Below are positions 5,483 to 29,416 of a DNA stretch of 32,000 bases, one piece after another (the stretch's first letter is position 1; each line of letters begins with the position of its first letter). Origin of the DNA: Gammaproteobacteria bacterium (lineage in GTDB: Bacteria; Pseudomonadota; Gammaproteobacteria; S012-40); NCBI GenBank assembly GCA_029881255.1, contig JAOUMY010000004.1, positions 53,313 through 85,312 of the forward strand, in the 5' to 3' direction. The translations under genes and the position numbers were made by a program. The notes beneath the pieces are model-generated. The model did no database searches, was not told the origin of the DNA, and saw nothing but the letters and a program-made list of their open reading frames with translations.

Positions 5483-5546
5483 GTGGGGGTTCCAATTCGC
5501 GTAGGTGAGAGCGTTTTGTCTTGAGACTATCGTATGAAGCTATGCG

Positions 5547-6572
5547 ATGGCTATAATAAATGCGCTTAGTCTGGTCGACATAATTCATATCGACCGAAAT
5601 CTCTGCCTGGGCTGTCTCTATTTGTGGGCAGCGGTTCAAACAAAAACGGTGAATACTCTGTATCTGCAACTCGCTATGTTTCTCTTGCTGTTTGTCACCG
5701 GGCTTATTCTACGCCAGACCCGGCTTGCGGACAAAGGAATTGCCGCGTCATTACTCAATATTGTCGTCAATTTCGGCTTGCCATTGCTCATATTGGGATC
5801 GGTCACGCAAGTCAAACTGGCCGGATATTACTCCTGGTTTCCATTCATCGCGGCAACGGTGATGTTATCGCTGGGAGCCGTGGCCTATTTTTTTACCAGA
5901 CACAGCACGGTGCTTGAGCAAAAAAGTCGTGGTGTTGTGATTGTCGGCGTGATGATAATGAATCTATCTACGCTTTATCCATTCTTGTCCTGGGCATGGG
6001 GAGACGAAGCCGTAGCGCGTCTTGCATTGGTGGATTTCGGGAATGGTGTGATCGCCTTTAGCGTGGTGGTAATGATAGCCTCATGGCATGGCCGGGGGCA
6101 GGGCAGTGTTGCATCCTCATTGATACTGATGTTGCGGTTCCTGCCGTTCTGGGCATTGTGGCTGGGTTTACTGATTAACGGGTTTGACTGGTATTTTCCG
6201 GAATCGCTGTCGCGTTTCTGTCTTGAATTAGGTAAGTGGATTGTGGTGCTGGTCTTTCTCGCGCTGGGGCTTCATGTCAATATACGCATGGGATTACATC
6301 CCTGGATCTGGCGGACAATTGCTGTGCGTGTTATTGGTGGTCTTTTGTTATCCTCACTGTTGGCGTTTTTGTTACCCTTGGACCCGCTTTCTCGCGCCGT
6401 GGTAATCGTTGCGGGCGCGGCGCCGATTGGTTTCAATACGCTGGTATTCGCCATACGCGAAGATCTGGATCAGGATCTCGCGGCGACTATGGCGTCCTTG
6501 TCCGTGTTGGCCGGTATGATTTACATACCACTACTGATAGTCTTATTGGAACGTTGGCTTTTAGCCGCATAG
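5547..6572 (+). CDS. AEC (auxin efflux carrier) family permease
   Basis: Polytopic membrane protein with many hydrophobic helices. The N-terminal pattern MFLLLFVTGLILRQTRLADKGIAASLLNIVVNFGLPLLILGS and the C-terminal AAPIGFNTLVFA are typical of Mem_trans/AEC transporters. The start is uncertain: the ATG at 5676 (MFLLLFVTG) is an alternative to 5547. Confidence 0.7.
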   Translation: MAIINALSLVDIIHIDRNLCLGCLYLWAAVQTKTVNTLYLQLAMFLLLFVTGLILRQTRLADKGIAASLLNIVVNFGLPLLILGSVTQVKLAGYYSWFPFIAATVMLSLGAVAYFFTRHSTVLEQKSRGVVIVGVMIMNLSTLYPFLSWAWGDEAVARLALVDFGNGVIAFSVVVMIASWHGRGQGSVASSLILMLRFLPFWALWLGLLINGFDWYFPESLSRFCLELGKWIVVLVFLALGLHVNIRMGLHPWIWRTIAVRVIGGLLLSSLLAFLLPLDPLSRAVVIVAGAAPIGFNTLVFAIREDLDQDLAATMASLSVLAGMIYIPLLIVLLERWLLAA

Positions 6573-6578
6573 GGAATT

Positions 6579-7628
6579 ATGCAATTCGATCTTTTCTACG
6601 AGCTGGCTGTGCCAGGCCATCTTGAGCGCAGTGAAAGCGAAACCTATCGCGAAGCGCTTTCGGAAATCGCCTATGCGGATGAATTGGGTTTTGGCTGTGC
6701 CTGGGTGGTGGAACACCATTTCATGCGAGAATATTCGCACCTGTCCAAACCTGAGATTTTCCTGGGCGCATTGTCGCAGCTCACGCGCAAAATACGACTC
6801 GGTCACGCAATTATTCCTCTTCCCTTGCATCACCCGGTGCATATCGCCGAACGCATTGCGACGCTGGATATATTGTCGCAAGGGCGTATAGAGGTTGGTA
6901 TCGGGCGCGGTTTCTCCCCACTGGAGTTTTCGGTGTTTGGTGCCGATATGTCTCAAAGCCGTCAACAAGTGGAATTTTCGCTACAAACGATACGCAATAG
7001 TTTTGAAGGACAGCCGCTTAGCTTTCTGGATAAACAGGGGACTGCGAAAACGTGTGACATCGTACCGCATACCGTTCAGCCAGAAGGTCCGCCGTTATGG
7101 ACCGCGGCGGTTAGCCCCGAAAGTTTTGAGTGGGCCGCACTACAACGATTGGGCGTGCTCGCCGGACCATTCAAACCCTGGTTTATGGTGAAACAGGATA
7201 TCGCGCGATTTCGCGAGTTGTGGAGTGACGAAACGCCGCCAAAAACTGGGATGACAGTTGGAATAGTTTGTCTTGAAGATGGCGATTTGGCGCGAAAATG
7301 GGCGGAAACTTCGCTCACCTGGTTTTATAAAGAGCTGTATCGCACAACGTTGCCAGTATTGGAGAGTTTGTATCCGGGATACGAACACTTTCATGGTCTG
7401 GGTAGATTTCGCAAATTGATCAAAATGGGCATTAATTTGCGGATGCTTGAAACCTTTGGCATGGCCGTGGTGGGTACACCGGAGCAATGTATAAAACGTT
7501 TACGCAAGTATCAACGCGCAGGCGTAAGTCATTTGTTATGCGCGATTGGGGCTGGTGCCATGCCTACGGAGTTAGTAAAAGAGAGTATGAAGTGTATTAG
7601 CGAAAAGGTTATGCCTGCGTTTAGATAA
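6579..7628 (+). CDS. LLM-class (luciferase-like) flavin-dependent oxidoreductase
   Basis: 349 aa. The N-terminus MQFDLFYELAVP...YADELGFGCAWVVEHHF and RIEVGIGRG are typical of bacterial luciferase-like monooxygenases. It is followed 1 nt later by the next gene. Confidence 0.85.
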   Translation: MQFDLFYELAVPGHLERSESETYREALSEIAYADELGFGCAWVVEHHFMREYSHLSKPEIFLGALSQLTRKIRLGHAIIPLPLHHPVHIAERIATLDILSQGRIEVGIGRGFSPLEFSVFGADMSQSRQQVEFSLQTIRNSFEGQPLSFLDKQGTAKTCDIVPHTVQPEGPPLWTAAVSPESFEWAALQRLGVLAGPFKPWFMVKQDIARFRELWSDETPPKTGMTVGIVCLEDGDLARKWAETSLTWFYKELYRTTLPVLESLYPGYEHFHGLGRFRKLIKMGINLRMLETFGMAVVGTPEQCIKRLRKYQRAGVSHLLCAIGAGAMPTELVKESMKCISEKVMPAFR

Positions 7629-7629
7629 G

Positions 7630-8517
7630 ATGAAAGTTTTTATTACGGGCAGTAGCTCACATCTCGCACAGGCCTTGTTGCCGCGCTTGTGCAATGACAA
7701 AGATATCGAGCGGGTATCCGGTCTGGACATCCGACCTTCACGTTTTCACCATCCAAAATTCTTTCCGGTCATCGAAGATATTCGTAGCCGCCGGCTGCAG
7801 GCGAGACTACTTGGTCACGATGCGCTTATTCATATGGCCTATGTTGTACTGCGAGGAAGAATGTCCGAACAGACCATGCGCTCAGTCAATGTTGATGGCA
7901 CTTTACAGTTGTTTTCAACGGCACGGGAAGTCGGTATATCGCGGTTAATCAACCTTTCCAGTGCGGCAGTCTACGGAAGCGGTACCATGCTGAAAGAAGA
8001 GGCCGTGTTCAACCCGCTTCCCGATTTTCTGTATGCAGCACACAAGGTAGACGTTGAACGGCGATTGAAAAAAATTGCGCCACATATTATTCAACTGCGT
8101 CCGCATATCATTCTCGGCCCCTGTGCCCAACCCTTACTAAAACAGCTGTTACGATTACCTTTTTACATAAAACTGGCTGATCCACAGCCCCGGTTGCAGG
8201 CGGTACATGAATCCGATGTTGCTAATGCCATTATGCTTGCCTTGCGGACGACAGGGCAGGGCGCTTTTAATCTTGCACCGGATGATAGCTTGAGCTTTTA
8301 CGACATGATGTATTTACGCCGTAACTTCAATATTGGCATAACGCCAGAGTTGGCGTCCACACTGGTAAATCTGGCATGGAGGCTTACGGGATGGGGCGGC
8401 GAGACTGCCTGGGTGCAGGGCGCAAACAACAGTCTGACCTGTGATAATGGGCGTGCAAAAACTGTATTGGGTTGGCAGCCTATCTATACGACAGAGCAAG
8501 TCATTAAAAGCTGTTGA
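7630..8517 (+). CDS. NAD-dependent epimerase/dehydratase-family (extended SDR) protein
   Basis: 295 aa. N-terminal Rossmann motif MKVFITGSSSHLAQAL. SSAAVYG is followed by a YxxxK-type catalytic motif (YAAHK), as in extended SDRs. Confidence 0.8.
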   Translation: MKVFITGSSSHLAQALLPRLCNDKDIERVSGLDIRPSRFHHPKFFPVIEDIRSRRLQARLLGHDALIHMAYVVLRGRMSEQTMRSVNVDGTLQLFSTAREVGISRLINLSSAAVYGSGTMLKEEAVFNPLPDFLYAAHKVDVERRLKKIAPHIIQLRPHIILGPCAQPLLKQLLRLPFYIKLADPQPRLQAVHESDVANAIMLALRTTGQGAFNLAPDDSLSFYDMMYLRRNFNIGITPELASTLVNLAWRLTGWGGETAWVQGANNSLTCDNGRAKTVLGWQPIYTTEQVIKSC

Positions 8518-9379
8518 GATCCAGGCGAATATCGTAGCGTTGAAGCTGGCGCATAGTTGGCAATACGCATTTTTCAACGAGGTGTACTCGTTTGGGATTG
8601 CAACGCGCACGCTGTCGCCACAACCGTCCATTTGACAATCCTGCGTATTCATAAATCTTTTCATGCGGCAGATAGAACGCAGTCACAAATTCATTGAAGA
8701 TTCGATTGATCAGGGCTTGGGAGATATAACGTGAAAAACGTGAGGTGCGCGCCATGGCGCGATCTAATTGTTCGCGTGCAAACGCAATATGCCGAGCTTC
8801 ATCCTTGATATGTCGTGTACACATTTGTTGAATCACCGGATTGACTGAGGAAGAAGACTCTTTGCGTATAAACCGGTTCATTTTGTCAGGTACTTCTTCA
8901 CCGATAGTAACGACTAGCCAAAATAATGCGCTGTTAAACGGCAGATGAAGTCCGACGAAATTTGCTAAACCTGGCCACTGATTTTCTATACTGGGTATGG
9001 CAAGTTTTGCCCGATGCATGAGTTCGAGAAACATCAGGCTATGTCCCGCTTCTTCGCGTATCTCATGCAAGATATAGCGGTGTTCTGCAAGCGTTCTATT
9101 TTCTTTGCGCGTGGCCTCAATAAGACGTTTGAGAAAGATTTGCTCCAGCCATACCCCTGCCTGAATGATGCTGATAAATTCGTATTGACTGAGACGTTTT
9201 CTTTGAAATTCAGGCAAAGACTCAAATTCTGCCAATCCTGATAGCGAAATTGCGTCCGCTGGTAGCCAATAGTCATGGATTGAAAGCGCATCCCATTCAA
9301 TGGTCGTGAGAGGATCGGCATATCGGCTGCTGTTATGGGACAGATGCTCGGCTAAGGCACGACGGTTGGCTACGGGCAA
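8504..9379 (-). CDS. AurF-like di-iron oxygenase (p-aminobenzoate N-oxygenase family fold)
   Basis: 291 aa. Two ExxH iron-ligand motifs sit in helical context (HEIREEAGHSLMF and HIKDEARHIAFAREQ), with additional conserved Glu residues. TTG start with a GGAG Shine-Dalgarno 6 nt upstream. The 3' end overlaps the convergent SDR gene by 14 nt. Confidence 0.65.
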   Translation of the reverse strand: MPVANRRALAEHLSHNSSRYADPLTTIEWDALSIHDYWLPADAISLSGLAEFESLPEFQRKRLSQYEFISIIQAGVWLEQIFLKRLIEATRKENRTLAEHRYILHEIREEAGHSLMFLELMHRAKLAIPSIENQWPGLANFVGLHLPFNSALFWLVVTIGEEVPDKMNRFIRKESSSSVNPVIQQMCTRHIKDEARHIAFAREQLDRAMARTSRFSRYISQALINRIFNEFVTAFYLPHEKIYEYAGLSNGRLWRQRARCNPKRVHLVEKCVLPTMRQLQRYDIRLDLNSF

Positions 9380-9697
9380 ACGAATACTCCTGTTTTACAA
9401 GGGAGAAAATGCTTAGATAATCCGCAATATAGCACTATCTTTCGCGATTCTGAAACCGCGGTATTGGCCAGTTCAGCTCACCTATAGTGCGCCGCGGCAC
9501 TTGTCAGCCGCTGAAAATATTTCCACCCCACGATGTCGCGTGTTGCGTAGCAAGTCGATACTAACTTTGTATATCGGTACGGCGTGTCTCTGACTCTTGC
9601 GCTGACTCAATATAAAGCCAAGTCTTTGCGTTTGAAATTTAAGAAAAAATCATGTCCTGTCGAAATAGCGTATATGGCTAAATAGATAAGGGAAAAT

Positions 9698-11245
9698 ATG
9701 TACAGCGGAACCCTCATTCAATTGGTGAGATTGAGTCTGTTATCAGTGTTGATGACAGCGCCTGTATATGCATGGGATAGGTTAGAACAATTACCAATAC
9801 CGTCTGCAAGGGAGTTGCTCGATGATGAGAAACCCCTTTTTAATCAATCGATAAAGCTTATGGTTGAGGGCAAAAACTCCGATGCGATACGTGCACTACA
9901 ACCGATGGCTGAGGGCGGCGTCGTTGATGCCCAGGTCGCCCTTGGAAATATTTTGGCCCATGAGTCAACTCAGCAACAGCAAAAGAGTGGTTATCGTTAT
10001 CTCTACTTCGCAGCCAATAATGGAAATTGGCATGCGCAGCTGGTGGTATCCAATGCTTTTCGTGAAGGAATTTTTACGCCGGTAGACTATGGCAAGGCGC
10101 GTCATTGGCTTAAACGGGCAGCAGTAAACGGCGATGCCGCCATAGTGTCTCAGGAAACTGAGGCCTTGAATCACACCATGATGCTGGAGTCGGTGTCGCA
10201 GCTAGAGCAGGCACAATACGATGAGGCAGAAAAACTCTTACGCGAACTGGCAGAAGAAAACGTCGTCTCCGCACAGGAAAAGTTGGCGGGTATTTATCAG
10301 AACGGCTTTCTGGGCGAGGACAAAAAAGATGTTGCGCAGAATTGGTGGCATAGAGCCGCGCAACTTGGCTCTCAGGAAGCACAATACCAATTGGCCATGT
10401 CGTATTTTTCCAGTCCTGCCATTAGTGACGAACAACGTCAAAACGCTATTCGTATGCTGGAAAAGGCCGCACAACCGGGTAAGGCTGAGGCGCAATATCA
10501 ACTCGGCATTATCTATCTGACCGGTCAAGGTACAGACAAAGATGCGGATAAGGGTATTTTCTATTACCGCATGGCCGCAGAGCAGGGAAATGTGGATGCG
10601 CAGTACTCCCTTGGTGTTCGTTACGTCCTCGGTGAGGGCGTGAGTAAAAATGAATATGAAGCCCATCGTTGGTTTAAGGCCGCCGCTGATCGCGGTATGT
10701 CGAAGGCGATGCACAATCTCGCCTTAACGTATTTATATGGAATGGGCACTGAACCGGATGCCCAGATGGCAGAACGCTGGTTCCGATCCGCGGCAAGAGA
10801 CGGCGTGGAGAAATCGACGGGATTTATTCAACAAGACACTTCAGTCCAACCAACGCTGGTTCGGGTTGCCGATGCAACACCGAGTGCAACAAAACCTAAG
10901 ACCAGCAAAAAAGCGACGGTTACGAATACTCGGAAAGTTGAAACAGTAAACGGCGCAGACTGGTTTCTCAACCTTCCGACCAAAGGATACACTTTGCAGG
11001 TACTGTCTGCCGCGAATCCCCGTAGTGTCGATGCATTTCTTTCAAAGCACAGGTTAAAGCGAAAAAACTATTTGCACTATATCGATCGATCCAATAAACG
11101 ACCTTTGCATGTTGTTCAATACGGCTATTTTGACAGTCGTGAAGAGGCGGAAAAAGCAGCGAAAGATATGTCGAAGACGCGAAAGAATTTTGAGCCATGG
11201 ATACGTGATGTAAAAAGTATCCGTAATAAAATTGTCAATATATGA
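9698..11245 (+). CDS. Periplasmic Sel1-repeat protein with a C-terminal SPOR peptidoglycan-binding domain
   Basis: Signal peptide MYSGTLIQLVRLSLLSVLMTAPVYA/WD. At least 7 Sel1-like repeats, e.g. AQYQLGIIYLTGQGTDKDADKGIFYYRMAAEQGNVDAQYSLGVRYVLGEGVSKNEYEAHRWFKAAADRGMSKAMHNLALTYLYGMG. A Ser/Thr/Lys-rich linker follows. The SPOR-like C-terminus reads GYTLQVLSAANPRSVDAFLSKH...LHVVQYGYFDSREEAEKAAKDM. Its stop overlaps the motA-like ATG (ATGA at 11242). Confidence 0.85.
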   Translation: MYSGTLIQLVRLSLLSVLMTAPVYAWDRLEQLPIPSARELLDDEKPLFNQSIKLMVEGKNSDAIRALQPMAEGGVVDAQVALGNILAHESTQQQQKSGYRYLYFAANNGNWHAQLVVSNAFREGIFTPVDYGKARHWLKRAAVNGDAAIVSQETEALNHTMMLESVSQLEQAQYDEAEKLLRELAEENVVSAQEKLAGIYQNGFLGEDKKDVAQNWWHRAAQLGSQEAQYQLAMSYFSSPAISDEQRQNAIRMLEKAAQPGKAEAQYQLGIIYLTGQGTDKDADKGIFYYRMAAEQGNVDAQYSLGVRYVLGEGVSKNEYEAHRWFKAAADRGMSKAMHNLALTYLYGMGTEPDAQMAERWFRSAARDGVEKSTGFIQQDTSVQPTLVRVADATPSATKPKTSKKATVTNTRKVETVNGADWFLNLPTKGYTLQVLSAANPRSVDAFLSKHRLKRKNYLHYIDRSNKRPLHVVQYGYFDSREEAEKAAKDMSKTRKNFEPWIRDVKSIRNKIVNI

Positions 11246-12081
11246 GAGCACGGCAGGGCGGATTTATTTCATGGGACACCGTATTCGGCATACTTGCCGG
11301 ATTCGGTTTGTTCGTTTTTGCGGTATGGACATCGACAGACAATGCGTTGGTGTTTTGGAGTGTAGCGAGTTTGTCTATGGTTATCGGCGGTACATTTGCA
11401 GCTACGCTGATTTCATATCAATCCGCCTATGTCATGAAGACGATTAAGGCATTGTTTGGCATTCTAATTCCCACGCGTGTTAGTGCTGGATCTTTATTTG
11501 CCGATGTGGGACGGCTGCTTGAATGGAGTCGTGACGTACGGGAAAAAGGTCCGGCAATATTAGACGATCAGTTGGAAAATGCCGCCGCGAATAAGCTGGA
11601 TAAATTTACGGTGCACGGACTCAACATGCTTTCCAGCGGCTATAAGGGCGAGGAACTGCGGGAGTTGTTAATGGAACTGACAGAGACGATGTTTGATCGT
11701 TCTCAAGTGCAGGTGGGTGTTCTGAAAACGATGGCGCAGTTTGCGCCAGCATTCGGCATGATAGGCACCTTGGTCGGTCTGGTCATCATGCTGGATAACT
11801 TGAAGGCAGATGTAAGCCAGTTGGGGCAAGGACTTGCCTTAGCATTGATAACAACACTCTACGGTGTAATTGCCGCGAATCTCGTGTTTAAGCCAGCGGC
11901 ACTGAAAACGGATCAAAAAAACAATGTTATGCGCTTTCGAAACACGTTGTTATCTGAAGGGTTTGTGATGCTGAGTGAAAAAGTGGATCCACTCAAAATG
12001 CAGGACAAGTTGAACAGCTTTCTAGATCCCGCAGTTCACTTTGACTTGCTTGCAACAAACGAAAAGGGCAAGAAAAGGTAA
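11242..12081 (+). CDS. MotA/PomA-family stator ion-channel protein (MotA/TolQ/ExbB superfamily, 4-TM MotA type)
   Basis: 279 aa with two N-terminal TM helices. The long cytoplasmic loop has a MotA-type pattern (REKGPAILDDQLEN...FTVHGLNMLSSGYKGEELRELL). The C-terminal TM3/TM4 carry the two conserved prolines (FAPAFGMIGTLVGLVIML and ALITTLYGVIAANLVFKPAALK). Confidence 0.9.
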   Translation: MRARQGGFISWDTVFGILAGFGLFVFAVWTSTDNALVFWSVASLSMVIGGTFAATLISYQSAYVMKTIKALFGILIPTRVSAGSLFADVGRLLEWSRDVREKGPAILDDQLENAAANKLDKFTVHGLNMLSSGYKGEELRELLMELTETMFDRSQVQVGVLKTMAQFAPAFGMIGTLVGLVIMLDNLKADVSQLGQGLALALITTLYGVIAANLVFKPAALKTDQKNNVMRFRNTLLSEGFVMLSEKVDPLKMQDKLNSFLDPAVHFDLLATNEKGKKR

Positions 12082-12087
12082 AACGCC

Positions 12088-12768
12088 ATGGCTACCAGAT
12101 ACCGAAAACGGTCTGCGGTGTCGGACGAAGATAGCGAAGACTGGTTGCTGACATACTCGGATGCGGTGACATTGTTGATGACGTTTTTAGTTTTGATGTT
12201 GTCCGTATCGACTATCGATCAGGCGAAATATGAGCAGGTTGTAGAGTCGATTAAAGAGAAAGGCCTGGATCAGGACAAGCAGTATGTATCGCCGTTCGAG
12301 ACGCTACAGGAAAAATTGAATGATGTTGCCAAAGAACATGATATGGAAAAAAACATGACCGTGACGCGCCAACCAAAAGGGCTGACGATAGAGTTGGCAT
12401 CGTCCAGTTTGTATACCGTGGGTTCTGCAGACATACAGGATGCGGCACTGGCGGCCTTGAGTGATGTGGCGTCGTCGATAAAAGGTTTTGACTATGACAA
12501 TTACCAGGTGGAGATTGAGGGGCATACGGACAATGTGGCAATCAATACCGAGCGCTATCCCTCGAATTGGGAGTTGTCTGTGCACCGGGCAACGAACGTC
12601 GTGCGCCATTTTCTGCAGAGTGGCATCGATAACGATCGTATCAAGGTCGCAGGTTATGCCGATACGCGTCCAAAAGTACCGAACCAGGACGTAGCTGGAA
12701 ATGCAATCCCTGGTAATCAGGCTATCAACCGACGCGTGGTGATTCACGTGGTGAGAAAAGAGGATTAG
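12088..12768 (+). CDS. MotB/PomB-family stator protein with an OmpA-like peptidoglycan-binding domain
   Basis: 226 aa. The N-terminal TM has the conserved channel Asp (DWLLTYSDAVTLLMTFLVLML). The C-terminal OmpA-like motif is IEGHTDNVAINTERYPSNWELSVHRATNVVRHFLQSGIDNDRIKVAGYADTRP...NRRVVIHV. It starts 6 nt after the motA-like stop. Confidence 0.9.
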   Translation: MATRYRKRSAVSDEDSEDWLLTYSDAVTLLMTFLVLMLSVSTIDQAKYEQVVESIKEKGLDQDKQYVSPFETLQEKLNDVAKEHDMEKNMTVTRQPKGLTIELASSSLYTVGSADIQDAALAALSDVASSIKGFDYDNYQVEIEGHTDNVAINTERYPSNWELSVHRATNVVRHFLQSGIDNDRIKVAGYADTRPKVPNQDVAGNAIPGNQAINRRVVIHVVRKED

Positions 12769-12777
12769 GGGCAGGTA

Positions 12778-13902
12778 ATGGAAATGACTTCACTTGTCAG
12801 AAATGGTAGCAAACGGAAGGCGCTGTTCTTGCTCATGTCTTTTTTCGTGATTTCACCAGACGCAGTGATGGCTGCTGATCCGTCAGCTACACCACAAGTC
12901 GAACGCTTCAAGTTGAGTTATCGCGATGCAGAGATGATTCAGTATATAGATGCTCAGGAAAAATTCGTTAAGTTGCTTGATTCGCCGGGTGTGTTAACAG
13001 AGGAAGTATTAAAGGATATAGATTTTGAAGTAAGAAATATTGCCTTTTATCGCTTCAACGACAGACAGTACAAAAAGTTTCCACGCATATTCTACGACTC
13101 GATTGAACAAAGACTAATGGACCGTTTTATTCGGGCCAAACGTTTCGCAGTACATGAATGTTTTGAATGTAAAACGACACGCGTACTGTTAAAGGAAAAG
13201 CAGTTTTCCGTTTTGCGCCAACTTGATTCGAACGAGGCACTCAACGAAGTGGGGAAGAAAATTGGCGTCGACAGCTTTGTTTTGTGGGAAGCCTATATGT
13301 ATAAGGGTGACCCTATGCTTAATATACGCGTCGTCTCGGCAGCAGATGGTCAGGTCCGATGGTCGAAACAATACCTGAGTGAACCTGCCTATGAATTTGA
13401 GTGGGAGATGTATAGCTCACTGTGGGGAATAAAGGCGATAAGGGCAAGAACTTCGGGTAGTGGTTCGGATATCAGCGTATCGCCCATTCTCGACATAGGT
13501 CTCAGAACCCTGTCGCGCTCAACTATTTCGGACAAAATTTATTATGGCTACGGCGTCGAAGCCTTCTTCAATACGATGTATCGCACCCAGGTGGATCTTT
13601 ACGGCTTGAGTCTGAATGCCCGTGTGGGCGTCGAAATGGATAGTATGCTTGGGCTGGAAATGAAGAACTATGGCAATTGGCTGATGTATCTTTCCGTTGG
13701 TCAGGCGTTCTTGAAAAACAATCCTGTGTTATTGATTCGGGGTGGTCTGGAGATACGTATAAACAGGCGTAATTTTATTGAGATTGGTGGCGTGTTCATT
13801 CCTACGACGACATTTAGCAACGGATCAGCTTTGGCAAATTACAGTGATGTGTCTTCGCTTAGTAACCTTGGTTACGACGTCACTATCGGTTTTCGTTTTT
13901 AG
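12778..13902 (+). CDS. Predicted outer-membrane protein: periplasmic alpha/beta domain (CsgG/LpoB/FlgO-like pattern) plus a C-terminal beta-barrel
   Basis: Sec signal peptide (KRKALFLLMSFFVISPDAVMA/AD). The N-terminal half has the pattern seen in CsgG/LpoB/FlgO-type domains (IAFYRF...IEQRLMDRFIRAKRFAVHE...LNEVGKKIGVDSFVLWEAYMYKGDPMLNIRVVSAADGQVRWS). The C-terminal half has alternating amphipathic strands and ends in a textbook OMP beta-signal (YDVTIGFRF, terminal Phe). I recognised no characterised family. Confidence 0.5.
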   Translation: MEMTSLVRNGSKRKALFLLMSFFVISPDAVMAADPSATPQVERFKLSYRDAEMIQYIDAQEKFVKLLDSPGVLTEEVLKDIDFEVRNIAFYRFNDRQYKKFPRIFYDSIEQRLMDRFIRAKRFAVHECFECKTTRVLLKEKQFSVLRQLDSNEALNEVGKKIGVDSFVLWEAYMYKGDPMLNIRVVSAADGQVRWSKQYLSEPAYEFEWEMYSSLWGIKAIRARTSGSGSDISVSPILDIGLRTLSRSTISDKIYYGYGVEAFFNTMYRTQVDLYGLSLNARVGVEMDSMLGLEMKNYGNWLMYLSVGQAFLKNNPVLLIRGGLEIRINRRNFIEIGGVFIPTTTFSNGSALANYSDVSSLSNLGYDVTIGFRF

Positions 13903-13912
13903 GTGAATTGAC

Positions 13913-14602
13913 ATGGGTAAATATTCTGGTCGATTGAAATTAGTTTACATCTCACTGGTGGTAGTGGCGATCTCCGCTTGTATGCCGCGTATTCCTACCA
14001 ATCAGACTCAGACTCGCGACGTAGCTCTGGAAGACGTGCAGAACGAAATGCAGCAAAAAGGGCAACGAGTCAAGATGATTAATGAGCCCGGGATGATTCA
14101 TATTCAACGCCAGACAGAAGAGTATTCGATCAGCATGGTCCTCGATGCCAGTGACGAAAATATCTATTTCGTGATGGATTTGCCGCAGGAAGAGGAAAAG
14201 ATTCAGGAACCCGTACCGGTTGAAGAGCCACCGCTTCCAGAACCGGAGCAAGTTATCCCTGAGCCACCGCCAGAGGAAGAGAACGCAGTCGAAGAAGAAA
14301 AGCCTGCGCCGGTAGAAGAGGCTGCAACCGTAGAGCCGGAAGTCGACGATACTCGCGCGAGCAAATACATTTTGTATGCGCAAACCTATTTTCTGGAAAA
14401 GAAATATGCACGCGCATTAGAAGAGGTTAACCGTGCCGTAGGCTACTCGCCAGGATCTGCGGTAGCGCATTCATTGCGCGGTTCTATATTTTACAAGCTG
14501 GGCGAAAAAGAACAGGCTCGCAACGCTTGGACACGGGCATTGGAACTCGATGAAAGTCTCGACAATGTTAAGAAAATGTTAGGTCAGTTGGATCAAAAAT
14601 AG
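13913..14602 (+). CDS. Lipoprotein with a Pro/Glu-rich extended linker and C-terminal TPR repeats
   Basis: Lipobox VVVAISAC. The acidic proline-rich tract is QEPVPVEEPPLPEPEQVIPEPPPEEENAVEEEKPAPVEEAATVEPEV. The C-terminal TPR-like helices are YILYAQTYFLEKKYARALEEVNRAVGYSPGSAVAHSLRGSIFYKLGEKEQARNAWTRALELD. An AGGTGA Shine-Dalgarno lies 6 nt upstream of the ATG. Confidence 0.7.
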   Translation: MGKYSGRLKLVYISLVVVAISACMPRIPTNQTQTRDVALEDVQNEMQQKGQRVKMINEPGMIHIQRQTEEYSISMVLDASDENIYFVMDLPQEEEKIQEPVPVEEPPLPEPEQVIPEPPPEEENAVEEEKPAPVEEAATVEPEVDDTRASKYILYAQTYFLEKKYARALEEVNRAVGYSPGSAVAHSLRGSIFYKLGEKEQARNAWTRALELDESLDNVKKMLGQLDQK

Positions 14603-14626
14603 TTGCTTGTACCGGGAATCTGCATA

Positions 14627-16735
14627 ATGTTTGAATCGGGTCATAAACGCAAATTGATAATCAGAGCACTAGCGCTGGTGTTGTGCTATCTCATTGCGTT
14701 CCCGGTCGGCCTTGCAGAGGAGATCGAGCGACGTAGTAAGGTCAGTGATCTGGCACGCAGTACATTCGAGAAGGATCTGGAGCAGCGACTTTCCCGCGAT
14801 ATCAAAGCCTATCTCAATCACGAATTCTTTATCGTACAAATAAATGCGCAACTGGAAAATATCGAGAAGTGGGATATCAGCGAAGTTGTGGTGCCGGTTG
14901 AGCCGCCTCCTCAAGCTCCACCACAGGCTGCACCTCAAGCTCCACCACCGGTACCCGCGATAGATGAAAAGAAGAAAACGATATTATCGCAGATGGAGCT
15001 CGATACCAAAGACGGAATCAATAGTAGTATTCTGGAAAAAAGTATCGGTGTTGATACGGCTTTGCCCGGTGTACCTTTGTCCGATGAATTTATCGAGGAA
15101 GAACGAAAACGTTTGGTTGAGTTGGAGCAACTCAAACAGGAACTGAAGCAAAAACTGGAAGAGCCGCCGAAAGCGGAACCACCAGCGCCACCTCCACCAG
15201 TGCCTCAGGTGCAAACAAAAAAGGAAAAGGTAGAAAAACTACTCAGTAAACAGGAAGCGATCCGTAAACTGAATGCAAAGGTGATGCTGGATGAACACGT
15301 CTCTCCGGAGCAGGAAGTGTTTATTCGCAATCTGGTGATAGAGAAGGCCGATCTCTCTTTTTTGCGTGGAGACGAACTACGTATTTTGCGTTCCAAGTTT
15401 CCTGCGGCATCAGTACTGGATGAGCCAGTAGAAGAAGAGCCCAAGCCAGAAGAAGTACCGGAGGAGGCGGCTGAAACTCCGGCGGAAGAACCTCCCACAT
15501 GGTGGGAGGAAAATTGGCAATACGTGCTCGCGGCCGGTGCCATTCTAGCGCTGCTATTGCTGTGGCTTTTTGTCAGACGTAGAGAAAAGGCGCCTGTGAA
15601 TACCGAACCCATGGTGGTGGAGTCTGAGGCCTCGCGCAAGCTTGAAGAATTAATCCGAAAAATGCACGAGAAAGTCGATACGGTAAACGAAAACCGTCTT
15701 GGGGCGATTAAGGAAGAAATTGTTAGTCTCGCCGTAACAGATCAGGAAATGGTCAGCGAGCAAATCAAGGAATGGCTTGGTAGTGCCTCTGAGGATGACA
15801 AAAACAAGTCTGGCTTACTTTATCAAATGTTGGGTGAAGGCTTATATCGCGGCTTGGCGCATCCCGTGTTGACACCGGAAAAGCAAATTGCCGTCGTCGG
15901 TAAGATACTCGAAATCGAAGAGATGATGTCTCCCGATGAGAAACTGGCACTGGCGGAAAATGTGTTTCAGGCCATGATGCAACGCCGCTATCAGCAACAA
16001 CACGATTTGCGCGACGAGAATAAACCGTTCGCCTTTCTTGAAAAACTCAATGACGATCAGATTCTATATCTGTTGAAAGAAGAGCCGCTCAAAGTCAAGG
16101 CTTTGGTAATGTCGCAGTTGTCCTCTAATCGAGGTGCGTCCTTACTGAAACGTTTCAACATTGCCAGTCGTAGTAAGATCGCGATGGAGATCAGCCAGTT
16201 CGCCAAGCTACCGGTATCCGCGTTTCGGGATATCGCTAACAGGCTCGCAAAAAAGGCGGTTCACGTTCCGAGTTACGAAAATCTGGAAGTCGAGGGCATC
16301 GATTTGCTGACAGATATGTTGGACCATATGAATTCTGCGGAAGAAACGGCCCTGCTCAAATCCCTGCAGCGAGAAAATCCAGATCTCTACTATGCAATAC
16401 GCCAGGTATATGTCAGCTTCGACGATATCGTACAGATACCTACGCTTGGACTTAAAAATGTTATTCGCGAACTTGATCGTGAAGTGCTTGCCTTGGCCTT
16501 GTATGACGCAGACGAAAGCTACCGTGGCGTAATCTTCGGCACTATGCTGGAAAGGCCTCGGGCAATGCTGCAGTCGTCAATTAAGGCTTTGGGCGTACCG
16601 GAGCCAGATGCGGTGAACGATGCGAAACGCAAAGTGTCACGACAGGCTCGGGCGATGTTAAAGGCGGGTGTATTTGAGATGCCGAGTGGAAAGCCCAATA
16701 AAAAGACGACGCCAAACGAGAAGAAAAGCGCCTAA
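14627..16735 (+). CDS. Bitopic/two-TM membrane protein with FliF-like topology and a cytoplasmic FliG-like (middle + C-terminal) domain
   Basis: The ORF track starts at TTG 14603. The ATG at 14627 ([30 protein letters not shown]) is more plausible.
- Layout: N-terminal hydrophobic anchor or signal, then ~270 aa periplasmic with [17 protein letters not shown] and [15 protein letters not shown] tracts and a coiled coil.
- Second TM: [20 protein letters not shown] followed by RRREK (nt 15515-15574).
- The cytoplasmic ~385 aa are colinear by eye with E. coli FliG: [31 protein letters not shown] vs [38 protein letters not shown] vs [46 protein letters not shown] vs LQEVDSESLLIALKGAEQPLREKFLRNMSQRAADIL. 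Confidence 0.75.
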   Translation: [702 protein letters not shown]

Positions 16736-16790: not shown

Positions 16791-17357
16791 TCAGGCAATA
16801 TATCGCCGCGACACTTCAGGCCAGTCATATTCGCGTAACTCTTTTTCCAAAGCCTGCGCCTGGTGGCGTTCGCGCAAACTACGCATTAAACAGGTGCGTG
16901 ATTGAAACATCATCATGGCTTCCAGCGGATTAAATTTCATTCCCTCTATAAATAGCAACATGATAGCATCGTGTATGCCAGGAAATTGTTCGAATCGTTT
17001 CAAGGTCTCTTCATGGACTTCATCCCACTCCTCATTTGAGTCGTGACACCAACCGAGTGTATGAAAGATCGGTGGAAGTAGCAGCAGTAGGTTCGGGAAT
17101 CGAATTTCCGCAGGCATAAAAACCACACGACGGATAGAGAAGGAAATGGCATAACTCAGTGGGAGATACAATTGAGCATTGTCTTCTAACAGAGTAAGAG
17201 TGTTCGCCTGCAACAGGTCTTCAACCAGGTCAGCCAGATCTTCCGCACTTTGGGCATGTGAAAGCGCTACGAAGGTTTGATTGACAAAGGCGAGGGGGTT
17301 TTGTGTGTATTCGTATCGTGGCTTTGTATCAAGAGTGTTTTCATCAACGGTAATCAT
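16791..17357 (-). CDS. Hypothetical protein (no recognisable domain)
   Basis: 188-aa ORF with an ATG start, convergent with the FliG-like gene. Mostly helical-looking acidic protein. I recognised no family. Confidence 0.5.
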   Translation of the reverse strand: MITVDENTLDTKPRYEYTQNPLAFVNQTFVALSHAQSAEDLADLVEDLLQANTLTLLEDNAQLYLPLSYAISFSIRRVVFMPAEIRFPNLLLLLPPIFHTLGWCHDSNEEWDEVHEETLKRFEQFPGIHDAIMLLFIEGMKFNPLEAMMMFQSRTCLMRSLRERHQAQALEKELREYDWPEVSRRYIA

Positions 17358-17464
17358 GACATCCTCGCAAAGTTTGCAGCTACGTTAGTAGTGTAATAGC
17401 AGCACTTATGCCATTTCTGAGGATGGTGATATGTCTAGTGATTACAATGGGATAAAGAATGTAA

Positions 17465-17512
17465 GCAGCACCTCGCCAGCGAGAGAGGAGGAGGGAGAAG
17501 GCAAGGTGCTGC
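17465..17512 (-). terminator. Long imperfect hairpin downstream of the HEAT-repeat gene (possible terminator or RNA element)
   Basis: GCAGCACCTCGCC (17465-17477) pairs with GGCAAGGTGCTGC (17500-17512): 12 of 13 bp with one C/A mismatch. The stem encloses a 22-nt purine-rich loop (AGCGAGAGAGGAGGAGGGAGAA on the plus strand). On the minus strand it lies 17 nt after the stop at 17529 and is followed by TTACATTCTTTAT, which is only moderately T-rich. The loop is large for a canonical intrinsic terminator. Confidence 0.3.
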
Positions 17513-17528
17513 CGCTTGCTAGGTGAAA

Positions 17529-17939
17529 CTAACCCATCTGAGGTGACAGCCTTTCCAAGGCCTCAGAGGCGTAGATACGTACTTTCTGACTCGTGTCACT
17601 CAATGCCTGGATCAAGGCCGGTCGGCAAAGCTGGGCAATAGGTGCGATATTACGCAGCGCGCGCGCGGCGGCGATACGTAACGCAGTTTCACCGTCTCTA
17701 AGGGTATGCACCAAGGCCGGTAGGGCTGGCGATGCCTGTTCACCTAACATACCAATAATGTCAAAGCATATGCTTCGCATGAGCGGATCGTTGTCGTTTA
17801 AGGCTTTGTCGGCTAGTTCGCAAACACTATTGTTATCCAACGGGCTGATCTGAGCCAGATATCTTGCAGTTTCCTGCTCTCGTTGCCTGAAATCGGTGTC
17901 TTCCATTGTTGTCATTTCATGTACCTCGTTTGTGCACAT
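17529..17939 (-). CDS. HEAT-repeat protein
   Basis: 136 aa. Tandem HEAT/PBS-lyase-like repeats: DPLMRSICFDIIGMLGEQASPALPALVHTLRDGETALRIAAARALRNIAPIAQLCRPALIQALSDTSQKVRIYASEALERL. Several candidate Met starts. Confidence 0.7.
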   Translation of the reverse strand: MCTNEVHEMTTMEDTDFRQREQETARYLAQISPLDNNSVCELADKALNDNDPLMRSICFDIIGMLGEQASPALPALVHTLRDGETALRIAAARALRNIAPIAQLCRPALIQALSDTSQKVRIYASEALERLSPQMG

Positions 17940-18087
17940 ATCCCGATAGAGCTCATCTATAGTTCAAGCATAGAGCCAGGTTTGTTGGAAAGCTGTGAGT
18001 TTCTTCACAAGGAACACGAATTTTTTTGCAATAAGTTCCCAAAAGACTCAGTACTGCCTCAGACTCTAGTTTGGGTTGGGTGTCGCA

Positions 18088-18870
18088 ATGTGGTTTAATG
18101 TTGTCACAACAAACGACTGGGAATTACGGATGGCAGGCGGGCGCAGGAAATTTGCTCTATTATTTGCCTTGTTTGGCAGCTTTCGTGATCTCGCCCCCAT
18201 CATTTTAGTTGTCGCCTTTTTTCAGTTGCTGGTGTTGCAGCAACCCATTCCTAATATGACCGATATCATCATCGGCGCGTTACTCGTGGCAGTTGGTCTC
18301 ACGCTATTTATTCAGGGCCTTGAGCAGGGTTTGTTTCCCATCGGAGAAAGTATGGCCTACGCCTTTGCGCGTAAGGGCAGTCTCTTTTGGTTACTGGCAT
18401 TCGCTTTCGCTCTGGGATTTGGCACTACCGTAGCGGAACCTGCGTTAATCGCCGTGGCTAAAGAAGCTGCTGCAGTCGCAGCCGGCGGCGGTGTCATTGA
18501 AAATACAGACGAGGCGAAGAGTGATTATGCCTATGGACTTCGGCTTACAGTGGCCTTGTCAGTCGGCGTGGCGATTGTGCTCGGGGTGTGGCGCATACTT
18601 AAGGGCTGGCCTATCCACTACATGATAGTCGTCGGATACATAGGTGTCGTCATCATGACAGCATTTGCGCCTAAAGAGATCATTGGTATTGCTTATGATT
18701 CTGGCGGTGTTACCACTTCGACTATTACCGTACCTTTAGTGACAGCACTCGGTGTTGGCCTGGCCTCCAGCATTAAGGGGCGTAATCCCATGATCGATGG
18801 ATTTGGGCTTATCGCCTTTGCTTCCTTATTACCCATGATATTTGTCATGGGGTACGGGATGTTGTTCTGA
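18088..18870 (+). CDS. DUF1538-family integral membrane protein (paralog 1)
   Basis: Polytopic membrane protein sharing blocks with the next gene ([68 protein letters not shown]). I recall these blocks as DUF1538. The ORF track starts at TTG 18076. ATG 18088 and ATG 18130 (MAGGRRKF, which aligns best with the paralog N-terminus) are alternatives. Confidence 0.8.
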
Positions 18871-19664
18871 TGGAACTGATATTACAAATACTATCGACTT
18901 TACTCGCCACTATCGGTGATGTGTTACCGATCGCAGCCATCATCTTTGGCTTTCAATTTCTGGTTATACGCAAACCCGTTCCTCAACTAAAACGCGTCCT
19001 GGTGGGATTTGTCTATGTCCTGCTTGGCTTAGCGCTTTTCCTTGTTGGATTGGAAAAGGCCTTGTTCCCACTCGGCAAGTTAATGGCGCAACAATTGACA
19101 GATCCTGAATTTATTTCAAGAGGAATGGACGTAGTTACAACAGCGTTGTCCTGGCAGGACTACAAATGGGTATACATTTTTGCCTTTGCCATCGGATTTT
19201 CCACCACGATTGCCGAGCCATCTTTGATTGCGGTAGCCATTAAGGCACAGGAAGTGTCCGGTGGAACCATAAGTGTGTGGGGTTTGCGCATAGCCGTAGG
19301 TCTGGGAGTGGCCATAGGGATTGCCCTGGGTACCTTCCGTATCGTAACGGGTACACCTTTGCACTTTTATATTATTTCCGGCTATATCGTGGTCGTCATC
19401 CAGACCTTTTACGCACCGCGCATGATAATCGCCTTGGCATACGACTCTGGCGGGGTTACAACGTCGACTGTGACGGTACCATTAGTAGCTGCGCTGGGAT
19501 TGGGTTTGGCCAATACCGTGCCGGGGCGCAGCCCGCTGCTGGACGGATTTGGTCTAATTGCCTTTGCCAGTTTATTCCCCATGATGACAGTCATGGGCTA
19601 CGCGCAGTTTTCAGACTGGCGTTCCAAACAAAACAGGAAACGATATACGGAAGGAGGGAAGTAA
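18870..19664 (+). CDS. DUF1538-family integral membrane protein (paralog 2)
   Basis: 264 aa. It has the same conserved blocks as paralog 1 ([68 protein letters not shown]). Its start overlaps the upstream stop (TGATG). Confidence 0.8.
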   Translation: MELILQILSTLLATIGDVLPIAAIIFGFQFLVIRKPVPQLKRVLVGFVYVLLGLALFLVGLEKALFPLGKLMAQQLTDPEFISRGMDVVTTALSWQDYKWVYIFAFAIGFSTTIAEPSLIAVAIKAQEVSGGTISVWGLRIAVGLGVAIGIALGTFRIVTGTPLHFYIISGYIVVVIQTFYAPRMIIALAYDSGGVTTSTVTVPLVAALGLGLANTVPGRSPLLDGFGLIAFASLFPMMTVMGYAQFSDWRSKQNRKRYTEGGK

Positions 19665-20014
19665 TGCATTTTAAATTAATTATTGCACTGATCGAGGACG
19701 ACAAAACTGAGGCCGTGCTCGAAGCTGCCCGCAAGCAGGGCGCGACTGGGGCCACGATTATCAATCACACGCGTGGCGAGGGCTTGGTTCCAACCAAGAC
19801 ATTCCTGGGCTTGTCATTGGAAACTCAGCGGGACATGTTGATGTTTCTGGTCGAGGAACATTTGTGCCGAAAAATTCTTGAGACGATTGCGGAAGTCGCA
19901 AGATTCGATGTGGATTCGGGGGCGGGAATCGCCTTTCAGATAAATGTTGAAGATGCAGTGGGGGTGTCTCATCAGGTCAGTCAATTGTCAAAATTGGTGG
20001 AGGATAATCTATGA
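19664..20014 (+). CDS. PII-like (GlnB-fold) signal-transduction protein
   Basis: This 116-aa reading frame is the 3' part of track ORF 19277..20014. The true start is the ATG at 19664, preceded by AAGGAGGG and overlapping the upstream stop (TAATG). The sequence MHFKLIIALIEDDKTEAVLEAARKQGATGATIINHTRGEG...MLMFLVEEHLCRKILETI has the beta-alpha-beta PII layout, with a loop at the T-loop position. Confidence 0.65.
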   Translation: MHFKLIIALIEDDKTEAVLEAARKQGATGATIINHTRGEGLVPTKTFLGLSLETQRDMLMFLVEEHLCRKILETIAEVARFDVDSGAGIAFQINVEDAVGVSHQVSQLSKLVEDNL

Positions 20015-20412
20015 GTGAGAAAGCGCCGATCAAAGTCAGAGATGTGATGAAGGCAGAGTTCGATGTAGTCGATGGTATGGCGACGATTGATCAGGCAGTG
20101 GAACGTATGCAGCATGTCGATACTAAATGTTTAATTGTCGACAAACGACACGAAAACGACGAGTACGGCATTCTTCTGTTGTCAGATATTGCGCGTAAGG
20201 TATTGGCCAGAGATCTTGCTATGGATCGAGTCAATGTCTACGAAATCATGGCCAAGCCAGTCTTACATGTGGACCCGGAAATGGATATACGTTACTGCGC
20301 GCGTTTTCTCGATCGCTTTGATTTGTCGCGTGCGCCAGTTGTGGAAAACCGCAAAGTCATTGGCATCGTAAGTTATACCGATTTGGTATTGAAAGGATTG
20401 TGTCGGAAATAG
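20011..20412 (+). CDS. CBS-domain pair protein
   Basis: 133 aa. Two CBS-like modules: VRDVMKAEFDVVDGMATIDQAVERMQHVDTKCLIVDK and VYEIMAKPVLHVDPEMDIRYCARFLDRFDLSRAPVVENRKVIGIVSYTDLV. Its start overlaps the PII-like stop (ATGA). Confidence 0.85.
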   Translation: MSEKAPIKVRDVMKAEFDVVDGMATIDQAVERMQHVDTKCLIVDKRHENDEYGILLLSDIARKVLARDLAMDRVNVYEIMAKPVLHVDPEMDIRYCARFLDRFDLSRAPVVENRKVIGIVSYTDLVLKGLCRK

Positions 20413-29279: not shown

Positions 29280-29416
29280 GTGAAAGTGCGTAAATAGTTC
29301 TTGGGCGTTGGATTTACACAATCTCACTGTGTTAACTGGTCGACGATATAACCGATAACAAATTAACACGGTTTCGTATCGTGCATTTCATAGTAGCTGA
29401 GTAGAAAGATATCGTT

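Follow-up and report, generated by a model that had tools for sequence, protein, structure and literature searches.

To our knowledge, the 5:2 motors of the MotAB family that have been described outside the flagellum (Ton, Tol, Gld, Agl and Zorya) have all replaced the partner that they drive, and FliG and the FliF ring have so far been considered exclusive to flagella. Here we describe an operon in which a flagellar-type stator pair is encoded beside a predicted fusion of FliF to FliG. It lies on the forward strand at positions 9698-16735 of a stretch of 32,000 nucleotides (the window) from a Gammaproteobacteria bacterium (assembly GCA_029881255.1, contig JAOUMY010000004.1, positions 53,313 to 85,312). 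Its six genes encode, in order, a secreted Sel1-repeat protein with a SPOR domain, MotA, MotB, a secreted protein with a predicted outer-membrane beta-barrel, a tetratricopeptide repeat (TPR) lipoprotein and the fusion protein, which we call FliF′–FliG. We consider, with moderate confidence, that this operon is a self-contained, flagellum-independent rotor–stator engine derived from the flagellar motor core.

The initial annotation of the window, made from its letters alone, had described six packed, co-oriented genes. A check of the open reading frames (ORFs) and their junctions agrees with this: all six ORFs are present, the Sel1-SPOR and motA genes overlap as ATGA (11242-11245), and the gaps that follow measure 6, 9 and 10 nt. 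For the last gene there are two candidate starts, a TTG at 14603 directly after the TAG at 14600-14602, giving 710 amino acids (aa), or an ATG at 14627, giving 702 aa, the latter being the choice of the public annotation (P0001, 702 aa). P0001 is 100% identical, yet look-ups of the window proteins by exact sequence matched nothing. The arrangement is not due to chance, since the gene set recurs across related loci. That annotation had known of no characterised system of such composition, and in our literature search likewise nothing was found that describes a FliF′–FliG protein anchored in the membrane and paired with a MotAB of its own. In the passages considered here of a survey of MotAB and its non-flagellar relatives (PMC12505986), no such module appears and FliG is mentioned once, in the introduction.

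The FliF′–FliG protein and its stator pair

Profile comparison and predicted structure indicate that the last protein of the operon (14627..16735, with the alternative TTG at 14603) is a genuine C-terminal half of FliF fused in frame to FliG. It runs from an N-terminal signal or transmembrane segment through a unit resembling ring-building motif 3 (RBM3) and the beta-collar of FliF, a transmembrane helix, the FliF C-terminal tail and a helical linker into FliG_M and FliG_C, and it is a membrane-anchored protein of 702 aa, whereas FliG is soluble and has ~330 aa. Throughout, Pfam domain calls were mostly judged against curated cut-offs, and the NCBIfam equivalog cut-offs served as a second test. 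The two FliG domains (aa 478-689, 16058..16693) score above their Pfam cut-offs (FliG_M 40.1 bits, cut-off 25; FliG_C 74.1 bits, cut-off 23.3), while the full-length FliG model TIGR00207 is matched at 81.4 bits, under its cut-off of 226.7. With phmmer, the C-terminal 310 residues align to Thermotoga maritima FliG (1lkv) at 68 bits in a residue-level match, and hhalign places residues 478-689 of a 16-member family profile on residues 117-327 of Escherichia coli FliG with a probability of 96.8%. The AlphaFold2 (AF2) model of the fusion, with a predicted local distance difference test score (pLDDT) of 73, has an N-terminal hydrophobic helix, a transmembrane helix, a long cytoplasmic helix and an all-helical region that ends in FliG_M and FliG_C. 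Its first Foldseek matches are full-length FliG (3hjl, E = 3.7e-11) and then C-ring structures, and the FliG_C fold superimposes on 1qc7 with a target template-modelling score (TM-score) of 0.92 and a root-mean-square deviation of 1.2.

The periplasmic part (aa 31-256, 14717..15394) is modelled as a beta-alpha-long hairpin element, an insert, and a long hairpin-alpha-beta element that carries an invariant RGD motif. Searched against the Protein Data Bank (PDB) with Foldseek, it retrieves the RBM3 and collar of FliF MS-rings (6sd1, E = 3.3e-5, target TM-score 0.47; also 8t8p, 7cg7 and the Vibrio entry 8z4d), the MS-ring matches having E values of 2e-5 to 9e-4 and a probability of 1.0. The family profile also aligns by hhalign, at residues 208-388, to residues 370-551 of E. 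coli FliF, its last 180 residues (probability 95.7%, E = 1e-8). This alignment is colinear through the RBM3b 'RGD' motif (FliF EKRGDSLNVVNSPF), the second transmembrane helix and the cytoplasmic FliG-binding tail; in our protein the last two correspond to a transmembrane helix at aa 297-318 and a cytoplasmic helix at aa 334-388 (together 15515..15790). At the end of the tail …IKEWL in the family stands against …IRQWI in FliF, after which the sequence runs on into FliG. The Pfam model YscJ_FliF_C (PF08345) is matched directly by 9 of 46 diverse relatives. The middle and C-terminal FliG domains had been recognised in the initial annotation and the FliF-like part had been a mere hunch; the comparisons of profile and fold uphold both, the latter as a genuine FliF half.

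The fusion also differs from its flagellar relatives in what it lacks. The first two ring-building motifs of FliF (RBM1 and RBM2) are absent, as only ~30 residues precede the RBM3-like unit and Pfam gives no match to PF01514. The EHPQR motif by which FliG binds FliM is lost: E125 is the sole residue kept, H126 is replaced by E, D or R and in the window protein by P, P127 varies, Q128 has become R or K (P in L002, one of the related loci), and the position of R160 is invariantly E. This loss fits the absence of fliM and fliN. The MFXF hinge of FliG reads Y-[VIYF]-[ST]-F in the family. At the tip of the collar is an insert of ~105 aa (aa 91-196, 14897..15214), which is Pro/Gln-rich and predicted to be mostly disordered, with a pLDDT below 50 over most of its length. 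It carries the family-invariant motifs SQMELxTxDGI and LPGxP, with L146, P147, G148 and P150 invariant in the 16-member alignment, and is a candidate periplasmic contact or output element.

The stator subunits precede the barrel gene. MotA (279 aa, 11242..12081) matches Pfam MotA_ExbB at 80 bits, its best matches among solved structures are Clostridium MotA (6ysf/8ucs, 125.6 bits) and Vibrio PomA (8brd, 79 bits), and the models for TolQ, ExbB and ZorA give only ~10-16 bits. The closest NCBIfam models are MotP, PomA and MotA, the scores lying under the equivalog cut-offs (MotP 126.8 against 394 bits; PRK09109 121.6 against 237 bits). We aligned the protein and 15 orthologues from related loci to E. 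coli MotA; R90 is invariant, E98 is E or D, and P173 and P222 are conserved in all 16, with R100 and D108 of the window protein standing at R90 and E98. The protein has four transmembrane helices, retains both transmembrane prolines and, like PomA, has a short cytoplasmic loop. Threonines occupy the positions equivalent to PomA T158 and T185/T186, which, judged by the PomAB structures, suggests that the stator may be coupled to Na+. MotB (226 aa, 12088..12768; MotB_plug 59.5 bits, OmpA 60.2 bits) has a single transmembrane helix, a plug helix and an OmpA-like peptidoglycan-binding domain, and its channel aspartate, D25 in 'TYSDAV', aligns residue by residue with MotB in 6ysf and PomB in 8zyv. 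The MotA-type channel with both prolines and the MotB partner with channel Asp and OmpA-like anchor were thus correctly called from the letters. According to the passages of PMC12505986 that bear on this point, a plug and a torque-generating interface are hallmarks of flagellar ('FIT') stators as opposed to generic ion transporters. By these sequence features the pair is clearly of flagellar type, not of the TolQR/ExbBD type.

The contacts between stator and rotor are partly recognisable as well. In flagella, FliG R281 pairs with MotA E98 and FliG D289 with MotA R90 (passages of PMC7564593). In the torque-helix equivalent of FliF′–FliG (16544..16591, by alignment to FliG) the position of R281, R643 in the window protein, is K or R in 16 of 16 family members, so that by alignment the stator-contact arginine of FliG and both MotA charges are retained.

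Conservation, relatives and relation to the flagellum

The five-gene core, which consists of the barrel protein, the TPR lipoprotein, FliF′–FliG, MotA and MotB, is intact in all 15 locus records, 13 of which came from a genome scan with family alignment and two from exact look-ups (14 are distinct, as L001 is the L014 contig). With the FliG-like protein as bait, as the initial annotation had recommended, the same gene set is found across genera in two orders. One, Sel1SPOR-MotA-MotB-barrel-TPR-FliF′FliG, occurs in the window, in two Ectothiorhodospiraceae metagenome-assembled genomes (MAGs) and in two unclassified Gammaproteobacteria MAGs; the other, barrel-TPR-FliF′FliG-MotA-MotB without Sel1-SPOR, occurs in Oleispira, Thalassolituus, Bacterioplanoides and Saccharospirillaceae. 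Loci of the second kind sit at a fixed, syntenic housekeeping position, which points to vertical inheritance, and the core is found with different flanks. All five core genes are under purifying selection, with dN/dS of 0.04-0.08 in the pair L009/L012, chosen as the least saturated. Six Oceanospirillales-type loci (for example L001 7479-7826 and L006 7598-7984) encode, just upstream of the barrel gene and in divergent orientation, a small secreted protein of 108-128 aa in which the motif 'HKCGGK' is conserved. Some candidate neighbours were discarded: 'c28', which had seemed a conserved downstream neighbour, is an antisense shadow ORF inside the FliF′–FliG gene, 'c16' is a pterin-dehydratase-like housekeeping gene, and the convergent 188-aa and HEAT-repeat ORFs next to the operon in the window (16791-17939) are not conserved with the cluster.

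The family is also large. A word-indexed homologue search had suggested ~17 members, an underestimate given that an exhaustive profile search returned 204 representatives of 50%-identity clusters at E <= 1e-30. Of the 150 best of these, nearly all have a length of 560-780 aa and align over a stretch that reaches from the second periplasmic hairpin across the transmembrane helix to FliG_C. Among 46 diverse relatives with a mean identity of ~20%, the hinge glycine, (R)GD, the LPG of the collar insert and the F-x-F…Q…E with which FliG_M begins are invariant. In their source annotations the relatives are named 'flagellar motor switch protein FliG', 'FliG C-terminal domain-containing protein' or 'hypothetical protein'; on our reading, hundreds of entries of ~600-780 aa bearing the first of these names would be mis-annotated. 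A distinct, apparently soluble and non-canonical FliG-domain family was seen in P0018-P0020, which are ~600 aa long and combine N-terminal TPR repeats with FliG N/M/C and MgtE_N.

These patterns bear on the idea that the operon is a functionless, decaying remnant of a second flagellar gene set, whether lateral or ancestral. Such a remnant would account for a subset of flagellar parts in which several canonical motifs are lost. It is, however, effectively refuted by the conservation, and we regard it as most improbable: the genes are intact in the window and in every related locus record, the dN/dS values are low, new family-specific motifs have become invariant, at least 150 clusters of 50% identity belong to the family, and the non-flagellar barrel protein and TPR lipoprotein are conserved together with the rest.

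Five records of distant relatives were sampled, representing four different contexts, and in three of the four FliF′–FliG again occurs with MotA, a plug-bearing MotB and a homologue of the TPR lipoprotein, while a homologue of the LpoB-like domain is detectable in two. In L020 the MotB carries a C-terminal SPOR domain, a fusion that ties the SPOR module to the stator. Directly upstream of FliF′–FliG, MotA and MotB-SPOR in the same record (L020 323-7996) are genes for four small secreted proteins that end in SCPU/Csu-pilin-like sequences (…VNYD, …VDYD, …IDYI), a chaperone-like ORF of 275 aa and a protein of 995 aa with homology to the TPR lipoprotein in its C-terminus, which hints that in this lineage the motor may link to a fibre or usher-like system. 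In L021, genes for a Peptidase_M14 carboxypeptidase and a rhomboid protease follow motB (12958-15308), which is compatible with peptidoglycan or envelope processing. In L019 a 771-aa relative of FliF′–FliG adjoins a KAP-family P-loop NTPase (8001-11709) and may represent a variant with another partner.

A MotAB-type unit outside the flagellum could also belong to a Zorya-like anti-phage defence system, and ZorB models do match the MotB protein (60 bits), as expected from shared MotB homology. We consider this effectively excluded. ZorA models score ~13-15 bits, compared with the 125 bits of the match to flagellar MotA, the ZorA tail is missing, as are effectors resembling ZorC or ZorD, and a PADLOC scan of the operon proteins gave no defence assignment: the other four proteins have no meaningful match, only a lone 26-bit match to a short PtuA stretch on the Sel1-SPOR protein. 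In addition, the Oceanospirillales-type loci occupy their fixed housekeeping position rather than a defence island.

The initial annotation had noted that nothing else flagellar lies within the 32 kb. A scan of 25 further ORFs, which took in nearly every one of 130 aa or longer, among them the two that run off the ends of the window, concurs: they encode metabolic enzymes, DUF1538, P-II and CBS proteins, a MrfA-like helicase, a phosphatase, a Kelch-repeat protein and a STAND NTPase, and no flagellar, chemotaxis or type III secretion gene is among them. Flagellar genes were likewise not found in the flanks of the related loci. The organisms themselves can nonetheless be flagellated. Thalassolituus pacificus 59MF3M-4, which carries the cluster (L012), is motile by a single polar flagellum (PMC9807766), and the further carriers T. 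hydrocarboniclasticus, Oceaniserpentilla and Bermanella belong to the same group of polar flagellates. As a FliF′ without RBM1/2 and a FliG′ without the FliM site cannot form the flagellar MS/C-ring, the module of T. pacificus is additional to its normal flagellum, which settles for this carrier the earlier question of whether the copy is an extra one.

An extra module in a flagellated cell might still serve that flagellum, for example by forming an additional ring, by storing or regulating stators, or by acting as a mechanosensory brake through competition for stator units or their conditioning. The known cultured carriers are indeed polar flagellates, and all parts are homologous or analogous to motor parts, including the MotX-like Sel1 repeats and the TPR scaffolds of the PflA/FlcA type. 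Yet the module brings its own motAB, lies in Oceanospirillales-type loci far from flagellar genes in a housekeeping neighbourhood, and shows no sigma-28 or sigma-54 consensus upstream of the cluster in the 15 locus records; its FliF′ and FliG′, for the reasons given above, have no fit in a canonical MS/C-ring, and its Sel1 likeness to MotX is far under the family cut-off. We therefore judge a flagellar accessory to be improbable.

Envelope partners and the proposed mechanism

Three envelope proteins had been listed in the initial annotation as parts of the machine, and this needs revision: the barrel protein and the TPR lipoprotein belong to the core, whereas the Sel1-SPOR protein, found in the window and in L002-L005 but in none of the Oceanospirillales loci, is confined to one clade as an accessory. 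It is a secreted protein of 515 aa (9698..11245) with five Sel1 repeats and a C-terminal, peptidoglycan-binding SPOR domain (Pfam Sel1 130.6 bits, SPOR 44 bits). SPOR domains recognise denuded peptidoglycan, as at septa or new poles. An identification as MotX was rejected, as its 53.6 bits against a cut-off of 330 reflect generic Sel1 likeness and no MotY-like gene is present.

The secreted protein of 374 aa (12778..13902) has no Pfam or NCBIfam match, and its conserved family is likewise without a Pfam match on record in our search. Its AF2 model (pLDDT 77) shows a signal peptide, an N-terminal alpha/beta domain, in which an ECxECK motif is invariant, and a C-terminal beta-domain of 8-10 strands ending in GFRF. 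Foldseek matches the beta-domain to the OmpA transmembrane domain (1bxw, 6.8e-5), NspA, OmpW and Ail (E 4e-5 to 5e-4) and the N-terminal domain to the C-terminal domain of LpoB (4q6l, 5e-4, target TM-score 0.62) and also to TolB. The earlier call of an outer-membrane beta-barrel therefore gains structural support, with a small barrel resembling OmpA, OmpW and NspA that is preceded by a domain like LpoB or the N-terminal domain of TolB; remote homologues were found in L021 and L023. The TPR lipoprotein (229 aa, 13913..14602; TPR_2 37.7 bits, TPR_1 32.2 bits) consists of a lipobox (ISAC), a Pro/Glu-rich disordered spacer of ~100 residues and a C-terminal TPR domain, and its homologues adjoin the FliF′–FliG gene in all related locus records and in the distant L020, L021 and L023 (41-80 bits).

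Instead of being the driven output, these proteins may act as a scaffold for the stator, in analogy to MotX/Y, PflA/B and FlcA, to whose families they do not belong; another possibility is that they contact the collar loop. The TPR domain and the invariant short linear motif of the disordered collar loop would make an attractive pairing.

Starting from the homology and architecture of the parts, the linkage of their genes and the purifying selection on them, we propose the following mechanism. FliF′–FliG would oligomerise through its RBM3 and beta-collar into an inner-membrane ring, like the S-ring of the flagellum, where FliF assembles rings of ~33-34 subunits, and would display the torque helices of FliG_C on the cytoplasmic face; engineered FliF–FliG fusions do assemble rings (as reported in passages of PMC6079021). 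The dedicated stator units, of the MotA5B2 type, would dock on this ring, conduct H+ or Na+ and turn it. The barrel/LpoB-like protein and the TPR lipoprotein, with Sel1-SPOR in the window clade, would form a scaffold that positions and activates the stator, and/or that connects to the conserved LPGxP loop at the collar tip. Since the export gate, rod, hook, filament and FliM/FliN are missing, and RBM1/2 and EHPQR are lost, the machine cannot build or steer a flagellum. Its output most likely lies in the envelope and may be a task at, for instance, the denuded peptidoglycan of septa or new poles that SPOR domains recognise; the coupling to the outer membrane and peptidoglycan suggested in the initial annotation is likewise a proposal. 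We would put forward tentatively, and with some doubt, the further claim that this is the first case of a FliG–MotA pair operating without a flagellum as an autonomous, ion-driven rotary machine, with the collar loops or the cytoplasmic face doing work on the envelope.

A number of observations weigh against this proposal. The acidic pair D288/D289 of the torque helix is replaced by Ser, Ala or Thr in the window clade, with S650 and S651 at these positions in the window protein; across the family the D288 position is mostly A or S, and the D289 position is E or D in all Oceanospirillales-type members and S, A or T in the window clade. K264 and R297 of FliG are not kept either. Because of these losses the stator–rotor interface appears to be remodelled in the window clade and could work differently; the statement that the operon keeps the FliG-type stator interface therefore stands for the R281 position and the MotA charges, and does not extend in this clade to the acidic pair. 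The AF2 model of the fusion has a global predicted TM-score (pTM) of only 0.28, and the FliF fold is matched at a target TM-score of ~0.47. FliG_N is undetected by sequence, and hhalign leaves FliG 1-116 uncovered. A helical segment of ~90 residues (389-477) sits where FliG_N would be, and the Foldseek alignment to full-length FliG (3hjl) extends over 313 columns, which leaves room for a degenerate N-like domain; Pfam FliG_N matches in relatives were rejected as evidence for it, as they overlap a FliG_M repeat. No motAB was found within 8 kb of the relative in L019. Ring formation and rotation by the dedicated stators are steps that we infer, without FliM and FliN a ring of FliG domains may not be competent, and if the collar loops are tethered through the peptidoglycan to proteins anchored in the outer membrane, continuous rotation would be hindered.

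The main rival of a rotary engine is a non-rotary transducer in the manner of Tol-Pal or TonB. Here the stator would work on a single or oligomeric FliF′–FliG without continuous rotation of a closed ring, and conformational energy would pass through the transmembrane helix and collar loop to the barrel/LpoB-like protein and the TPR lipoprotein, for outer-membrane tethering, constriction or the remodelling of peptidoglycan at SPOR-marked sites. The composition runs parallel to that of Tol-Pal (a 5:2 motor, an OmpA-like peptidoglycan binder, a TolB-N/LpoB-like domain and a CpoB-like TPR protein), the operon includes a SPOR domain, which in L020 is fused to MotB, and an M14 peptidase and a rhomboid protease are in the operon of L021. 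Furthermore, the long disordered spacers of the lipoprotein and the collar insert would suit a reach across the periplasm, and the missing D288/D289 pair of the window clade is a hint that the interface has changed. The stator, however, is clearly flagellar, plug-bearing and PomA-like, not a TolQR or ExbBD; the rotor keeps the RBM3/beta-collar of FliF, whose sole known role is ring formation; the operon encodes no elongated partner like TolA or TonB; and the likeness is one of analogy, as no operon protein belongs to the tol-pal families. On balance we hold such a transducer to be unlikely and retain the rotary engine as our preferred reading.

Should the rotary engine prove correct, it would reveal the torque-generating core as a module that can stand apart, one in which the stator–rotor interface has been kept and the export, axial and switch parts dropped, under purifying selection. 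It would provide a natural 'minimal rotor' for structural and biophysical work and bear on how rotation and type III export were joined in flagellar evolution, whether as a flagellar motor radically repurposed or as the surviving relative of a rotor older than the export apparatus. The modular origin of flagellar rotation would then become experimentally approachable in cultured Thalassolituus or Oceaniserpentilla. The module also points to an envelope function in abundant marine hydrocarbon-degrading bacteria.

Other features of the window and comparison with known systems

The operon is preceded by a leader of 318 nt (9380..9697) with one sigma-70-like site (9394-9421, 10 of 12 matches), promoter-like sites not being enriched relative to shuffled sequence. 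Consensus scans for promoters and terminators gave matches at or under the level of chance, and an Rfam search found no element in the leader or elsewhere in the window.

Around the operon, the window contains several further gene groups. A gene on the reverse strand (2-2740) runs off its left end; the Kelch/Big_2-repeat product exceeds 913 aa and has a lipobox-like 'LTSCGGG'. Positions 3516-9379 encode a 2-hydroxyacid dehydrogenase, a HODM-like haem N-demethylase subunit, a luciferase-like monooxygenase, an NAD epimerase and an AurF-like di-iron N-oxygenase, which together may form a small pathway of tailoring or catabolism. Two DUF1538 membrane proteins in tandem followed by P-II-like and CBS-domain proteins (18076-20412) form a putative regulated transporter module, and a helicase with DEAD, Helicase_C, WHD_HRQ1 and MZB domains overlaps a downstream exonuclease of the RNase_H_2 superfamily (21961-25633), resembling the MrfAB DNA-repair pair. 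Further on are a cyclic-nucleotide-binding domain fused to a SpoIIE/PP2C phosphatase (25658-26977) and, at the right end, an Hpt-domain protein with a STAND/AAA_16 NTPase (29405-32000).

Compared with known machines, the module shares with the SpoIIIAG ring an RBM with an inserted hairpin region of the kind that forms a beta-barrel (Foldseek 5wc3, a weak match at E = 0.32), but SpoIIIAG is a static channel ring without FliG and without a stator. It resembles the Vibrio T-ring (MotX/MotY) and H-ring, PflA/PflB of Campylobacterota and FlcA of spirochaetes in placing Sel1, TPR, lipoprotein and outer-membrane parts beside a PomAB-like stator. This likeness is analogy only, as the NCBIfam scores are 53.6 against 330 bits for MotX and 14.7 against 300 bits for FlcA; in addition, the module has no P/L rings to build on, and neither SPOR nor an LpoB-like domain with a barrel is a known scaffold part. 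With Tol-Pal it has in common a 5:2 ion-driven motor, an OmpA-like peptidoglycan binder, a TolB-N-like fold, a TPR protein and, through SPOR, a link to septal peptidoglycan. It differs in its MotA (16.4 bits on TolQ, cut-off 221; 13.3 on ExbB), in the plug of its MotB, in having no TolA and in its driven partner, which here would be a FliG domain on a FliF ring module.

The engineered FliF–FliG fusions of Salmonella and Vibrio (PDB 8z4d; PMC6079021, in part) offer a precedent for a covalent joint between the FliF C-terminus and FliG, and 8z4d, titled 'Flagellar M-ring protein, Flagellar motor switch protein FliG', is matched by our protein in both sequence and Foldseek searches. Those fusions are laboratory constructs of complete FliF and FliG within a flagellum, whereas the fusion described here is natural, truncated and encoded in a non-flagellar operon. 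With the flagellar motor core itself the module is homologous in its RBM3/collar, second transmembrane helix, C-terminal tail, FliG_M and FliG_C, in the charges and prolines of MotA, and in the plug, channel Asp and OmpA-like domain of MotB. In contrast to that core, FliF and FliG are here one polypeptide from which RBM1/2, EHPQR and a recognisable FliG_N are missing, the neighbourhood has no FliM/N, export gate, rod, hook, filament or che genes, and the module has envelope partners of its own. Finally, like Zorya (ZorAB), ExbBD-TonB, GldLM and AglRQS, it uses a MotAB-family unit outside the flagellum; those systems combine a diverged stator unit with a partner other than FliG, whereas here a flagellar-type stator interface and FliG appear to have been retained together.

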